Assembly: GCA_963790795.1 (NCBI GenBank)
Contig: CAWBPO010000001.1
Location: forward strand, 268,073 to 332,072
Direction of reading: 5' to 3'
DNA from: an uncultured bacterium
GTDB lineage: Bacteria; Patescibacteriota; Minisyncoccia; Minisyncoccales; RBG-13-42-11
Length of the DNA: 64,000 nt
Part shown: piece by piece, positions 2,306-61,250 of the stretch
Layout: the number at the start of each line of letters is the position of its first letter
Numbering within the stretch: position 1 is the stretch's first letter
Notes under the pieces: generated by a model
The model's input: the letters and a program-made list of their open reading frames with translations, nothing else
Told to the model about the DNA's origin: nothing
The model's database searches: none
Translations under genes and position numbers: made by a program

Positions 2306-4273
2306 ATGACTAGTTTAACAAAAAAGATTGTAGCAATCGTAACAACAGTTACCTGCGCAGCCTGGATGATCAGTCCTGGAATCGCTTCAGCTTTAACCGC
2401 TGAAGAACTTCAGGCTCAAATCGCTACCTTGACCGCCCAATTAGCTACTCTTCAAAGTGAATTAACAACCTTAACAGGAACAACCGCTGCAGCCGGAACA
2501 CCGGCAGCTTGCGCTGGCATAACCTTTACTGTCAATTTGACAATAGGTTCCACTGGTGCTGATGTTCAATGCCTTCAGGCATTTTTGAACACTAATGCTG
2601 CAACTCAAGTTGCTGCCACCGGGGCAGGTTCTCCTGGAGCAGAAACAATGTACTTTGGTTCTTTAACCCAAGCAGCTGTTTCTAAATTCCAGGCAAACAA
2701 TGCTATTTCACCAACAGCCGGTTTCGTCGGTCCTATAACTCGCGCCAAATTGAACGAGCTGTTGACAACAGCAACTCCGACAGGACTTCCAGCTGGTTGT
2801 ACATCAACCGCTGGCTACAGCCCAACAACGGGTGTGTCTTGTGCCACTGTAACACCGACAACTCCAACAGGAGGCGCAGAGGGTAGCATTTCAGCATTAA
2901 CAGCTGCCACACCGATTACCGGGCAGACTATTTATGCCGGACAGGCTGAAATAGCGATAAATGGCCTTAATATAAAAGCTGTTGGCTCTGACGTATTGGT
3001 CAATCGTATTGACATCAAATTTGTCCAGAGACCATGGCTTTATGTTCCAAAGATTACAATCACTGATGGCACAAACGTCTTAGCCACCTTTGATGTAACT
3101 CAGGCCAGCACCATTGAAGTGACTGTTGGTTCAAATTACGTTGTTCGTATTGAAGGTTTGAACCTCAACATTCCAAAAGACACAACAGTATCTCTTGTTA
3201 TAAAGGCTGATGTTACATTGCCTGTGGGAATATCTGCTAATACAACCATCACTTACCAGGTTCTTGCTAACGCAGTTCGTGGAATTGATGGAGCTGGTTT
3301 GACACAATACGCTCCGCTTGGCAATTTAACCGCAAGAACCTTTATTATAGCGAGAAGTACTGTTGCCCAGCTTGATGTCGCTGCTGCCGCTGACAACCCG
3401 TTAGCCAAAGCAGTTATCATCAGTGAAACAGAAACAACAGAGAATGTTGAAATGTTGAGAGCTAATGTCAAGGCAAAATACAACGATGCTATTATAAGAA
3501 CAGTCGTTGTTGATTTGGTAGACGCTAACAGCAGAATAGGAGCTTTGAAGCTTTATGACGGTTCCACTCTGTTGGCTGCTACAAGCACAGCAGGCTCAGC
3601 CAGTTCTACTTTCACTGACCTTAGCTTGAGAGTTAACAAAGATACTACCAAGACATTGATTGTAAAAGGTGACGTTTTGGCTACCAGCACAGAAGGCTAT
3701 GCAGCTTCAGTTTCCTTACCGGTTACTGTTACTGCAATCGTTGCCGAAGATGCTGGCGATTACACAACAGTTACAACCCTTACTGGTTCAAAGGCTTCAG
3801 GTAATGCAGCTTACTTCTACACTCTAGCTCCGAGCTTGGCTTTGGTTAGCACTGAAATTACAGGAATTCAAGGCACTACAGGAAGCGCTTCACCTCAGCA
3901 AGCACAAGGCAAGATTAAGATCAATGTGACTGCTCAGGGCGGAGACATTTACGTGCCTAAGTACGCTGCCTTAGTAGCTTCTAGCGGTATTTCAGCTAGC
4001 GCTACCGGAAACACAGCAGCATCTCCTACTTGCACTTTCACCAGCAACGCAACCGAGAAAACAAATTCTTGGTTAGTTTCATCCGGTGAAACCAAATGGT
4101 TTGAGGTGTCATGTATGATGACCAGCAGTGGAGCAGCTGCTTTTGCCCGAGCATACTTAACAAACTTCAAGTGGGATATAAGCGACGCAGCAGCAACAAC
4201 GCCTGATCACAACTGGACTTGGGGTCTTGAAACATTCAAGACAAGCGACATCTTCTTGCAGACTAAAGGATAG
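2306..4273 (+). CDS. secreted Thr/Ala/Ser-rich cell-surface protein with N-terminal coiled coil and peptidoglycan-binding (PG_binding_1-like) domain
   Basis: Signal peptide MTSLTKKIVAIVTTVTCAAWMISPGIASA. Coiled coil AEELQAQIATLTAQLATLQSEL. PGB-like GADVQCLQAFLN...YFGSLTQAAVSKFQANNAISPTAGFVGPITRAKLNELL. Followed by a T/P linker and beta-rich repeats. Confidence 0.75.
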   Translation: MTSLTKKIVAIVTTVTCAAWMISPGIASALTAEELQAQIATLTAQLATLQSELTTLTGTTAAAGTPAACAGITFTVNLTIGSTGADVQCLQAFLNTNAATQVAATGAGSPGAETMYFGSLTQAAVSKFQANNAISPTAGFVGPITRAKLNELLTTATPTGLPAGCTSTAGYSPTTGVSCATVTPTTPTGGAEGSISALTAATPITGQTIYAGQAEIAINGLNIKAVGSDVLVNRIDIKFVQRPWLYVPKITITDGTNVLATFDVTQASTIEVTVGSNYVVRIEGLNLNIPKDTTVSLVIKADVTLPVGISANTTITYQVLANAVRGIDGAGLTQYAPLGNLTARTFIIARSTVAQLDVAAAADNPLAKAVIISETETTENVEMLRANVKAKYNDAIIRTVVVDLVDANSRIGALKLYDGSTLLAATSTAGSASSTFTDLSLRVNKDTTKTLIVKGDVLATSTEGYAASVSLPVTVTAIVAEDAGDYTTVTTLTGSKASGNAAYFYTLAPSLALVSTEITGIQGTTGSASPQQAQGKIKINVTAQGGDIYVPKYAALVASSGISASATGNTAASPTCTFTSNATEKTNSWLVSSGETKWFEVSCMMTSSGAAAFARAYLTNFKWDISDAAATTPDHNWTWGLETFKTSDIFLQTKG

Positions 4274-45014: not shown

Positions 45015-45934
45015 ATGGATATCAATAAGTTTTTACCATCAGTCAGAAAAGACGTTCTATTGAAGAATTACACTACTTTTAGAATTGGCGGGCCAGCCAG
45101 ATATTTTTTTCAAGCAAAAAGCAAAGATGATTTGCTTTTGGCGTTTAAAACGGCAAAAAGATTTAATTTGCCTTTTTTTATTTTGGGCGGAGGAAGCAAC
45201 TTGCTGGTTTCGGACAAAGGATTTAACGGAATAGTTATTAAAATTGAAAATTGTAAATTGAAAATTGAAAATTGTAAAGTAAGTACTGATACTGGAGTAC
45301 CGTTGAACAAATTAATTAGTCTTTCAGTTGAAAAATCATTAACAGGTATGGAGTGGGCATCGGGAATTCCCGGGACAGTCGGCGGAGCTATTTTTGGAAA
45401 TGCCGGAGCTTTCGGAAAATCGATGAAAAATGTCGTTAGAAAGGTTGAAGTTTTCAATGCGAAAAATTTGAAATTTGAAACATATAATTTAAAAGACTGC
45501 AGATTTGATTATCGAGAAAGCGTTTTTAAGAAAAAAAAGAATTTAATTATAGTATCTGTGTTTCTAAAATTGAAAAAAGGAAAAAAACTGGAAATTAAAA
45601 AGAGAATTAAAGAATATATTGATTATAAAAAAAATACTCAGCCCTTAAATTATCCTTCAGCTGGGTCTGTGTTTAAAAATCCGGATAAAAAATCTGCCGC
45701 TCGGCAGGAAGAGGATCTCTTCTCAAAATTTCGTTGATTGAAGATTGCGGTTTGAAAGGAAAAACAATGGGAAAAGCAAAAATTTCCGGGAAGCACGCCA
45801 ATTTTATTGTTAATTTGGGCGGAGCTCGGGCAGAAAACGTTAAAAATTTGATAAATTTTACAAAAAAGGCGGTAAAAAAACGTTTCGGAGTGTCGCTAAA
45901 AGAGGAAATTCAATATTTGGGTTTTGAAAATTAG
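45015..45934 (+). pseudogene. murB: UDP-N-acetylenolpyruvoylglucosamine reductase gene split by a frameshift (ORFs 45015..45737 and 45734..45934)
   Basis: N-terminal part: NYTTFRIGGPARYF, ILGGGSNLLVSD, GIPGTVGGAIFGNAGAFG, PSAGSVFKNP. C-terminal part in the -1 frame: LIEDCGLKGKTMGKAKISGKHANFIVNLGGA...FGVSLKEEIQYLG. The join falls at 45702..45735. Confidence 0.85.
45240..45281 (+). repeat. 21-bp in-frame tandem duplication inside murB
   Basis: AAAATTGAAAATTGTAAATTG / AAAATTGAAAATTGTAAAGTA, encoding KIENCKL-KIENCKV. Confidence 0.85.
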
Positions 45935-46124
45935 ATTTTTTCCATTTTCCATTTTTATTTTCTATTTTTCGGTTTTCCACACTTGACAAAGTTTTTCAAA
46001 ATGAAAAAATATACTAATGGATGCGAATAGTTAGTCGACTATTCGCTGAGACTCTTTTAAAAATCGTTACCATTCTCATGGCAAAGAAAAAAGCAAAGAA
46101 AAAGAAGAAATAAATTATTTTCTC

Positions 46125-46157
46125 CCCCTCACTTAAAAAGTGAGGGGTTGTTTTTTT
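46125..46157 (+). terminator. rho-independent terminator after the poly-Lys mini-ORF
   Basis: CCCCTCACT-taaaa-AGTGAGGGG followed by TTGTTTTTTT. Confidence 0.75.
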
Positions 46158-46224
46158 ATTACTCTTTACAAAAAAGTTTTTTAATGCTAAAAAGATAAAA
46201 AGAATAATTTTAACAAGATAACCG

Positions 46225-46334
46225 GTTAATCGCTTTTTGTTTCACTCTTTGTTTTTCCGAGCACATAATCAGCAAACTTATATGCTCGGTTAGCTGGGGA
46301 AAGTTTAAAATCTTTCCTGTGGTAAGCGATTGAC
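46225..46334 (+). promoter_or_regulatory. candidate structured leader (three-way junction) directly upstream of speH
   Basis: P1 GTTAATCGCTT (46225..46235) / AAGCGATTGAC (46324..46334), 11 bp including one G.U. P2 CCGAGCACATAA (46257..46268) / TTATATGCTCGG (46278..46289). P3 GGAAAG (46298..46303) / CTTTCC (46312..46317). The P1 3' arm ends 9 nt before ATG 46344. Confidence 0.35.
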
Positions 46335-46343
46335 TACAGTATT

Positions 46344-46772
46344 ATGACTGGTAAAACAAAGAGATCCATTCAATGGGTCAAAAAATCCAAAAAACAGAAA
46401 TATGCCGGCATTCATTTGATTGCTGAATTTTGGAATGGGAAAATTATTGAAAATCCCAAAGAAATCAAGAAAATCCTGATAGCGGCAGTTAAAGAAGCGA
46501 AAAGCACTCCTTTAGAAGTGGCAATTCACAAATTTTCACCCCAGGGACTGACTGGGGTTGTTTTATTGGCAGAGTCCCATGTTGCTATTCATAGTTGGTC
46601 GGAATTTAACTATGTGGCTATTGACATTTTTACTTGCGGGGACTGGGCTAAACCCTACAAAGCTTTGCAATATTTAAAGAAAATATTTAAACCGAAAAAA
46701 GTTGAAATAAAAGAGATAAAAAGAGGGAAGTTAGTCAAAGAGGATAAATCCTCTTTTCCACCTTCATTTTAA
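46344..46772 (+). CDS. speH: S-adenosylmethionine decarboxylase proenzyme (class 1b, pyruvoyl-dependent)
   Basis: GIHLIAEFWNG and GVVLLAESHVAIHSWSEFNYVAIDIFTCG (self-cleavage E-S site, HSWPE-like motif). Confidence 0.85.
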   Translation: MTGKTKRSIQWVKKSKKQKYAGIHLIAEFWNGKIIENPKEIKKILIAAVKEAKSTPLEVAIHKFSPQGLTGVVLLAESHVAIHSWSEFNYVAIDIFTCGDWAKPYKALQYLKKIFKPKKVEIKEIKRGKLVKEDKSSFPPSF

Positions 46773-60402: not shown

Positions 60403-60825
60403 ATGAAAAAAATTGTCATTTATACTGACGGCGGTTCAAGAGGGAACCCCGGGCCATCAGCCATAGGAGTTGTTTTTTGCAACGAGAAAGGCCAGTATTT
60501 TAAAAAATATTCAGAGTATCTGGGCGATGATTTGACCAATAACGAAGCTGAATATCAGGCAGTGGTTTTCGCTTTGCAGAAATTCAGGGCTCTTTTCGGC
60601 AAAAAACTGGCAAAAAGCAGCGATGTTGAGATTAAATCTGATTCAGAGTTGATGATTAAACAATTAAAGGGGGAGTACAAGGTTTTAGAGCCGAATATTC
60701 AAACTCTCTTTTTAAAGGTTTGGAATTTAAAAATTGATTTTAAAAAGATAAAATTTTCTCTTATACCCAGAGAAAAAAACAAAGAGGCGGATGCTTTGGC
60801 CAATATGGCTTTGGACCAGAGATGA
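60403..60825 (+). CDS. ribonuclease HI-family protein
   Basis: IVIYTDGGSRGNPGPSAIGVVF, TNNEAEYQAVVFAL, KSDSELMIKQL and NKEADALAN, giving the D-E-D-D catalytic pattern. Confidence 0.8.
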   Translation: MKKIVIYTDGGSRGNPGPSAIGVVFCNEKGQYFKKYSEYLGDDLTNNEAEYQAVVFALQKFRALFGKKLAKSSDVEIKSDSELMIKQLKGEYKVLEPNIQTLFLKVWNLKIDFKKIKFSLIPREKNKEADALANMALDQR

Positions 60826-60855: not shown

Positions 60856-60861
60856 AAATAT

Positions 60862-61250
60862 CCCAGCAAGCTCGTAAGCCGAATTCTGTTTTAAGCGATC
60901 ATCTGTCTGGGCCCTTGATTGCTCTCAGGCTCGAGCGAACTACTTTTCACCCCTATAAGATAGTGATTTATCTCATTGGGATTTGTTCTTGCACCCAGTA
61001 AGGATTTAGCCGTTTCACCCCTGCATTGCTGCAGGACTTTCCCGTGGTTTTACGGGCTGCTCAACCTTTCGGTTCAGCTCGTCTCTGTTCGCACCTCTCC
61101 GAGCACATAATCAAATTATGTGCTGCGGGACGGCTGTTAGCCGCTACTTTTTTATCGAGCACATAATTTAATTATGTGCTACGAGAGTGTTCGGACTTTC
61201 CTCTGAACATATAAAGTTTTATAGGTTCAGCGATCACTCGGCTTGCTAGG
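60862..61250 (-). ncRNA. rnpB: RNase P RNA (bacterial type)
   Basis: Minus strand carries CR-I GAGGAAAGUCCGAAC (complement of 61189..61205) and CR-V ACAGAAUUCGGCUUACG (complement of 60873..60890). P1 forms between CCUAGCAAGCCGAG (5') and CGAGCUUGCUGGG (3'). GGGGUGAAA motifs are present. Length ~390 nt. Confidence 0.85.

Follow-up and report, generated by a model that had tools for sequence, protein, structure and literature searches.

A probable pseudoknot spanning the speH start codon represents a new family of cis-regulatory RNA in Patescibacteria

The window analysed here is a stretch of 64,000 nucleotides (nt) of contig CAWBPO010000001.1 (GenBank assembly GCA_963790795.1, forward-strand positions 268,073 to 332,072) from an uncultured bacterium of the Patescibacteriota lineage RBG-13-42-11. 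Its plus strand carries the gene speH at 46344..46772, whose product matches Pfam AdoMet_dc (E = 5e-36) and TIGR03330; the next gene is speE (Spermine_synth, E = 3e-56). An original prediction, made from the sequence, had placed a riboswitch-like leader at 46225-46343, in front of a gene for S-adenosylmethionine decarboxylase, and the domain matches bear out this gene assignment. The element found at this position defines a new cis-regulatory RNA family; its conserved parts make up a probable pseudoknot extending across the start codon of speH, the gene that it would regulate.

In the leader, an 11-bp closing helix with one G.U pair (P1) is formed by GUUAAUCGCUU (46225-46235) and AAGCGAUUGAC (46324-46334), and the ATG of speH (46344) starts 9 nt past its 3' end. 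P1 encloses two hairpins, P2 (CCGAGCACAUAA/UUAUAUGCUCGG, 46257-46268 / 46278-46289, with a 9-nt loop and one C.A mismatch) and P3 (GGGAAAG/CUUUCCU, 46297-46303 / 46312-46318, with an 8-nt loop). The P2 hairpin as a whole occupies 46257..46289; P3 with the joining strands J2/3 (UUAGCUG) and J3/1 (GUGGU) occupies 46290..46323 according to RNAfold and RNAalifold. A check of the sequence places all helices of the original prediction where they had been drawn, and in RNAfold the minimum-energy structure (-34.3 kcal/mol) and the centroid structure are both this three-way junction. Dinucleotide shuffles of the leader gave -20.8 +/- 3.0 kcal/mol (z = -4.55), and none of the 200 was as stable.

The most conserved part of the element had been overlooked; it consists of the 5' junction strand between P1 and P2, which had been drawn unpaired, and the complement of this strand inside the coding sequence. 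The junction strand comprises a U-rich loop L1, UUUGUUUCA (46236..46244), and the segment CUCUUUGUUUUU (46245..46256), the exact complement of 46353-46363. The complementary segment is the A-tract AAAACAAAGAG, which forms codons 4-7 of speH (K-T-K-R; nt +10..+20 of the open reading frame, ORF). The resulting helix, PK, would consist of 8 A-U, 2 C-G and 1 G-C pairs. Since the loop of P1 pairs with sequence 3' of P1, the arrangement is that of an H-type pseudoknot, in which P1 would be stem 1 and PK stem 2, the start codon lying in the connecting loop L3. This AU-rich loop (46335..46352) holds the ATG (46344-46346) and codons 2-3. A further hairpin in the coding sequence, P4 (GAUCCAU-UCA-AUGGGUC, 46363..46379), is supported by covariation and abuts the PK helix; with it the element extends 45 nt past the right boundary set previously, to 46379. 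The isolated duplex energies of P1 and PK are -13.1 and -11.3 kcal/mol, and the nested folds based on one or the other are near-isoenergetic (-46.0 and -43.0 kcal/mol, respectively). The two helices either compete or coexist as a pseudoknot, a fold that nested algorithms cannot score.

Relatives were collected by a SpeH protein search of species-representative genomes, which gave 16 loci (cited below by handles such as L004). A recognisable leader was present in 14 of the 16, all of them in metagenome-assembled genomes (MAGs) of the Patescibacteria/Paceibacteria type, and was lacking in L004 and in one Clostridium locus. More loci were added by exact-protein look-ups and by a DNA-pattern scan of metagenomes for the U-tract (GCTTTTTN{1,14}CTCTTTGTTTT), bringing the total to 27 independent leaders in two clades. 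The identity of SpeH to the window protein is 63-88% in the main clade and about 55% in the second one; the exact-protein look-up found no identical protein on record for the window SpeH. The U-tract pattern was too unspecific, with two true leaders (L074 and L104) among at least 120 metagenome loci listed, and the other 118 loci were reused as negative controls in an nhmmer search with a profile of P1a, L1 and PK. In the window and the collected locus DNA, all hits of this profile with E < 0.015 were speH leaders, one per locus, and the window was matched once. The element adjoins and overlaps speH in every case, and speE usually follows. Another exact CTCTTTGTTTT, at 60776 on the minus strand of the window, has neither P1 nor a matching context and was dismissed as chance, as was the single match (L137) from a scan of viral contigs for the coding motif.

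Base pairs were counted on a curated core alignment of the 27 sequences (A2). P1 shows compensatory changes at 7 of its 11 pairs with 93.7% of cells paired, the changes running from AAUCGC/GCGAUU to AAUUGC/GCAAUU, AAUCAC/GUGAUU, GUCC/GGAC and GCCC/GGGU. In P4, compensatory changes occur at 4 of 6 pairs, with variants such as GUUCUAU/GUGGAAC in L012, GAUUUGUCU/AGAUAAAUC in L014 and AGAUCC/GGAUCU in L138, and with GGGU/ACCC or AAGGGUU/AAUCCUU in the second clade. Paired cells amount to 95.3% overall, a share that drops to 36-53% once the 3' partners are shifted by 1-3 columns, and each of the observed covariation measures was reached by at most 1 of 500 shuffles. PK is paired in 97% of cells; at four positions U.G replaces U-A, in L142 U.G replaces C-G, and 9 of the 12 positions of its 5' strand are identical in all 27 leaders. 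As its strands are invariant, the pairing in PK is deduced from complementarity, wobble-compatible changes and frozen synonymous sites. L1 is U-rich in 27 of 27 loci, with a length of 5-12 nt and at least 5-6 U right after P1, and an AUG lies within L3 in every locus. An unbiased alignment of the 8 closest leaders (MAFFT and RNAalifold) recovered P1, P2 and P3 with 8 compensatory pairs of 25. Covariation, which the original prediction had suggested looking for in homologous leaders, is seen in these three helices, and its claim of a cis-regulatory structured RNA is upheld by the conserved, covarying leaders of speH-speE.

The number of inner hairpins varies from 0 to 4 across the 27 loci, and the hairpins can sit outside the closing helix. 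L005 has one, L008 has several, and L142, L015, L148 and L150 have none, while in L140 and L149 a hairpin is found after P1b and not inside P1. The insert from the U-tract to P1b accordingly measures from 2 to 180 nt. The compact forms L142, L140, L015, L148, L149 and L150 retain P1, L1, PK and the A-tract without inner hairpins. P2 covaries within the three-way-junction subfamily, and J2/3 UUAGCU and J3/1 GGU are kept only there. Between the end of P1 and the A-tract, 24 of the 27 loci have 10-19 nt (L002 was not measured, and L140 and L149 have the extra hairpin there), and the A-tract follows 3, 6 or 9 nt after the ATG and always in frame, that is, at ORF +4, +7 or +10. The three-way junction is genuine within its subfamily and is not the conserved core; the original view of it as the functional or ligand-binding centre is not supported, as P2 and P3 are dispensable and are absent or relocated in the compact forms. 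Both hairpins would be lineage-specific insertions at the helical junction, in loop L2 of the pseudoknot.

The constraint on the A-tract acts at the level of nucleotides. When 25 speH genes are aligned by codon, codons 4-7 are fixed as AAA, ACA, AAG and AGA in 24/24, 24/24, 25/25 and 21/21 of the sequences having those residues. Among about 72 other columns in which a degenerate residue is conserved, only 2 keep one codon throughout (Fisher p = 1.2e-5); pairwise codon identity is typically around 0.5, and AAG is otherwise the less used Lys codon. The second clade has the motif K-x-K-G, where x is T, A, P or S in 27/27 protein clusters, and these are the four residues with NCN codons. The codons for x in the four DNA sequences are ACA, GCA, GCA and CCA, with A always in the third position; the C and A that pair with leader G and U stay fixed while the amino acid changes. 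The A-tract and P4 are hosted by residues 1-23 of SpeH, an N-terminal extension outside the AdoMet_dc domain (residues 24-128 in Pfam, 20-128 in TIGR03330). This extension is present in at least 130 protein clusters at 90% identity, and only about 5 of the best 150 SpeH family representatives at 50% identity align from residue 1. It appears to be a clade-specific addition carrying RNA structure. A reading of the A-rich codons as a frameshift or slippery site was rejected, with codon 3 variable and no conserved X XXY YYZ heptamer.

A Shine-Dalgarno core (GGAG, GAGG or AGGA at -20..-4) was found in 4 of 44 window ORFs of at least 200 aa, which agrees with the earlier remark that this genome largely lacks such sites, and the sequence upstream of speH in the window has none. 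The start regions of the long window ORFs are A/U-rich. In L015 of the second clade, GGGAGG is located inside P1b of the leader. A terminator scan detected no terminator-like site on the plus strand of 46195-46343; with no terminator within the leader, control should be translational. A strong terminator with a U-run (46125-46147) closes the unit upstream of the leader. The putative promoter of the leader, as read from the sequence, is TTTACA-17 nt-TAAAAA with TG 2 bases upstream (an extended -10) at 46165..46193 on the plus strand, and transcription is predicted to start near 46200. The promoter-consensus scan omitted this site because its -10 hexamer ends in A. TTGACA/TATAAT-like sites are present 25-45 nt upstream of P1 in L002, L003, L138, L143 and L148.

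The direct support for the element comes from the helices themselves, the covariation of P1 and P4, the nucleotide-level constraint on both PK strands, the association with speH only and the absence of a match in Rfam. From this basis we infer the simultaneous formation of P1 and PK, to which the possible triplex, the direction of regulation and the effector are added as further steps of a model. Given a genome almost without Shine-Dalgarno sites, local structure should control initiation. P1, PK and P4 would enclose the initiation region from about -20 to +36. The 30S ribosomal subunit would need an open start region, as the organism does not use Shine-Dalgarno pairing; the folded pseudoknot would block or trap initiation (OFF), and in the open form speH-speE would be translated. 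The position of the element and the lack of Shine-Dalgarno sites make it a strong inference that the folded pseudoknot represses initiation, in line with the original suggestion that folding could occlude the ribosome landing zone. Stabilisation of the pseudoknot by the end product of the pathway is a plausible hypothesis. The hypothetical effectors may be ranked with spermidine (or a related polyamine) first, followed by decarboxylated S-adenosylmethionine (dcSAM) or S-adenosylmethionine (SAM) and then by a protein. The ligands guessed in the original prediction (a polyamine, dcSAM or a protein) are thus still reasonable candidates. Taken as a whole, the element of about 155 nt (46225-46379), with an H-type pseudoknot as its conserved core, is probably a translational OFF switch stabilised by the pathway end product.

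No known riboswitch class had been recognised in the leader, and this holds for Rfam 15, which gave nothing relevant at the gathering score in the window or at E <= 10 in 45900-46450 and in the compact homologues (L142 1120-1250, L015 2900-3030). The best Rfam matches nearby are terminator look-alikes at the upstream terminator. In the literature on speH/AdoMetDC leaders, Patescibacteria riboswitches and dcSAM aptamers, no description of a speH pseudoknot was found. By architecture, the closest known elements are SAM-II (RF00521) and SAM-V (RF01826). These H-type pseudoknots form a triplex in the major groove, conserve its nucleotides at more than 97% and may carry a hairpin after P1 (PMC6061858). 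The order of parts is common to them and to the speH element: P1 5' strand, U-rich strand, P2 5' strand, P1 3' strand, optional hairpin, A-rich loop and purine P2 3' strand. The strands of the (here putative) triplex are near-invariant, and the logic, putative in the case of speH, is one of translational OFF control burying the initiation region. Their ligand is SAM, to which the ligand proposed for the speH element is chemically tied. Unlike SAM-II and SAM-V, whose models match neither the window nor the compact homologues at E <= 10, the speH element has a stem 2 of 9-12 bp (about 7 in SAM-II/SAM-V), and its purine strand AAAACAAAGAG contains no U, whereas the 3' strand of SAM-II/SAM-V has a bulged U that pairs with the SAM adenine (PMC6061858). 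The 3' strand is placed inside the coding sequence and not at a Shine-Dalgarno site. Furthermore, speH consumes SAM, whereas SAM-II and SAM-V control genes of Met/SAM biosynthesis (PMC6061858).

In an H-type pseudoknot, L1 and the purine-rich 3' strand of stem 2 would run in parallel, the orientation required for U.A-U and C+.G-C Hoogsteen triples. L1 may occupy the major groove of PK and form U.A-U triples with the geometry of SAM-II/SAM-V, a geometry that polycations strongly favour. The pseudoknot topology and a U-rich L1 that would run parallel to an A-rich strand are present in 27 of 27 loci. The window sequence UUUUGUUUC-ACU-CUUUGUUUU forms a perfect mirror repeat with a turn of 3 nt at its centre and would give nine triples on AAAACAAAG, leaving G46363 to open P4. 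The length of L1 (5-12 nt) and the position of the G vary between loci, so a full-length triplex cannot be general; only a short U.A-U triplex, next to where P1 and PK meet, could be.

By gene association, the closest known element is the spermidine riboswitch, a SAM-I variant acting as an OFF switch on polyamine genes in Firmicutes (Salvail et al. 2023; PMC10853860). It is the one natural polyamine-sensing riboswitch class validated, a rare one, and its discoverers expect more (PMC10853860). Both elements serve polyamine genes (speE, speB and ldcC; speH-speE), have a narrow phylogenetic range and are expected to follow end-product OFF logic. None of the structural features of the spermidine riboswitch is present in the speH element. 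The former has the four-stem SAM-I fold and an intrinsic-terminator platform; the latter is a pseudoknot without a SAM-I (RF00162-type) match, has no leader terminator, is expected to act at translation and belongs to Patescibacteria. A parallel also exists in eukaryotes, where the translation of AdoMetDC is set by its own leader responding to polyamines (the spe2 5' untranslated region, UTR, and control by upstream ORFs), as proposed here for speH; the 5' UTR of Schizosaccharomyces pombe spe2 binds spermidine (PMC6961545). The eukaryotic leaders are unrelated in sequence and structure, and their mechanism depends on scanning. It is possible, though doubtful, that the speH element is a second, structurally unrelated riboswitch class of the polyamine pathway, a triple-helical (U.A-U) H-type pseudoknot that directly senses spermidine (or dcSAM) and governs initiation where Shine-Dalgarno recognition is lacking. 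In that event four speH codons would be one strand of the aptamer, and the SpeH extension would exist mainly to encode RNA structure.

Several points weigh against a pseudoknot switch responding to the end product. PK shows no two-sided (compensatory) covariation, both strands being simply invariant; mismatches affect its two terminal pairs in L007 and L144 and one internal pair (U.C) in L015. The counts on A2 lean towards structure, as P1b was chosen by best pairing and the arms of P4 by folding, yet P1 is independently supported by its recovery in the unbiased RNAalifold run. P1 and PK could be alternatives rather than coexisting helices. The KTKRS peptide could be partly under selection at the protein level. 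In L004 (a Nealsonbacteria MAG, 2975-3060), speH starts 25 nt past hpf without a U-tract leader and yet retains AAAACAAAGAG at +10 and P4; the coding part may have a second role there, or the loss of the leader may be recent. As for the triplex, of the 18 loci having the G only about 10 have an L1 that mirrors the purine strand. As for the hypothetical effector, polyamines bind RNA non-specifically.

Other explanations account for a part of these data. An operator that depends on a protein is unlikely; in this case SpeH, SpeE or another RNA-binding protein would lock the pseudoknot and trap the 30S subunit, as S15 does on rpsO. In Escherichia coli, the rpsO pseudoknot operator reportedly traps 30S with S15 (Philippe et al. 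1993; Marzi et al. 2007). The layout of the speH element is of the rpsO type, and the rpsO (S15) and alpha-operon (S4) operators share with it a hairpin loop pairing with the early coding sequence and a start codon between the stems, in the connecting loop. The invariant U-tract, which looks single-stranded, could be a protein site, and synteny links the leader to a small, very basic ORF. The ribosomal operators differ in being stabilised by the encoded ribosomal protein and in having a Shine-Dalgarno site; speH is a metabolic gene, and its leader has none. SpeH and SpeE show only enzyme domains in Pfam and NCBIfam, neither is known to have an RNA-binding domain or activity, and about 20 nt invariant on two complementary strands are more typical of a tertiary or ligand core. 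A constitutive element without sensing, which provides fixed low translation, protection of the 5' end or selection of the start codon while KTKRS is conserved for the protein, is quite unlikely as well. It would fit with the lack of any conserved alternative (anti-pseudoknot) structure, with the coding part retained without a leader in L004, and with a genome whose start definition must use other cues in place of Shine-Dalgarno sites. Selection on the protein fails to explain the invariance of the codons and the substitutions limited to NCN, the sequence invariance is more extreme than a simple stability element needs, and the element occurs only at the first gene of an operon for biosynthesis, the counterparts of which are feedback-controlled elsewhere (PMC10853860, PMC6961545).

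Nearest to the original prediction is a three-way-junction aptamer formed by P1, P2 and P3, with a small ligand in the junction and P1 alone occluding the landing zone. The junction is indeed the minimum-energy fold, and in the 8 close relatives its helices covary and J2/3 UUAGCU and J3/1 GGU are kept; but P2 and P3 are absent, single, multiple or relocated where every invariant nucleotide stays, and the joining strands are unconserved outside one subfamily. With the frozen codons 4-7, the complementarity to the junction strand and P4 left unexplained, this aptamer is improbable. There is very little to expect from an RNA thermometer or a general sensor of Mg2+ or ionic strength, in which the AU-rich PK would melt with temperature or low cation. 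The AU-rich composition of PK and its energy of only -11.3 kcal/mol would allow this, and thermometers of the FourU type do use U-runs. The U-run of the leader pairs with the coding sequence and not with a Shine-Dalgarno site, on which ground the FourU type was rejected. No Shine-Dalgarno site is available to be masked, the element is associated with speH exclusively, a thermometer would have no need of sequence invariance, and the host organisms come mostly from groundwater and sediment metagenomes.

As a translational switch, the speH element would be a concrete, easily synthesised candidate for a polyamine sensor of about 60-155 nt. Gene control has hardly been explored in Patescibacteria, and the element would be among the few regulatory RNAs defined there, showing a way to gate initiation in the absence of a Shine-Dalgarno site. 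It is also a clear case of dual coding, in which RNA structure dictates the N-terminal peptide of an enzyme, with codons frozen and substitutions limited to NCN; this matters for annotation and for models of protein evolution. The U.A-U triplex, if true, would offer a physical rationale for the sensing of polycations, since its three strands would have to come together.

A separate small transcription unit is located just upstream of the leader (46023-46155, plus strand). It includes a conserved hairpin (46023-46046), the loop of which is GGAGGUCGA in the second clade, and a tiny, very basic ORF (46078-46113, MAKKKAKKKKK*) without a match in Pfam or NCBIfam. The small basic unit is also found in L001, L003, L004, L005, L138, L148, L149 and L015; its ORF is always K/R-rich, and the length varies between loci from 10-11 to about 66 aa. 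It is curious that a gene for a polycationic peptide should be syntenic with genes of polyamine synthesis. A hairpin upstream of hpf in L004 resembles P2 of the window; it was identified as the terminator of the small basic ORF and not a remnant of the leader. Further upstream in the window, murB is split by a frameshift near 45700-45737 into the ORFs 45015-45737 and 45734-45934 (plus strand), both of which read as MurB. The split may reflect an assembly error, a pseudogene or recoding; murB is a single ORF in L138.

In many related loci, a shorter AdoMet_dc paralogue (112-126 aa, weak TIGR03330 score) adjoins speH, as in L140 (1101-1439), L146 (1610-1981), L147 (745-1104), L150 (1587-1958), L015 (3500-3880) and L148 (2429+). 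A fused Spermine_synth+AdoMet_dc gene precedes speH in L142/L143 (1-1074). The window has neither a second AdoMet_dc paralogue nor the fused gene. None of the paralogues has its own copy of the leader according to the nhmmer profile of P1a, L1 and PK. In L015, the spacer between speH and the paralogue contains a long, near-perfect inverted repeat (3398-3500) with arms of about 25 nt. The promoter-bearing stretch 46165-46224 of the window resembles by eye the 3' end of the paralogue ORF (...DFTKKFF.AKKIK*) in L009, L010, L140 and L147; either the promoter is embedded in the end of the paralogue gene or the stretch is a remnant of a deleted paralogue. Outside this region, the window carries an RNase P RNA of the bacterial class A at 60859-61249 on the minus strand (101.8 bits against a gathering score of 100).

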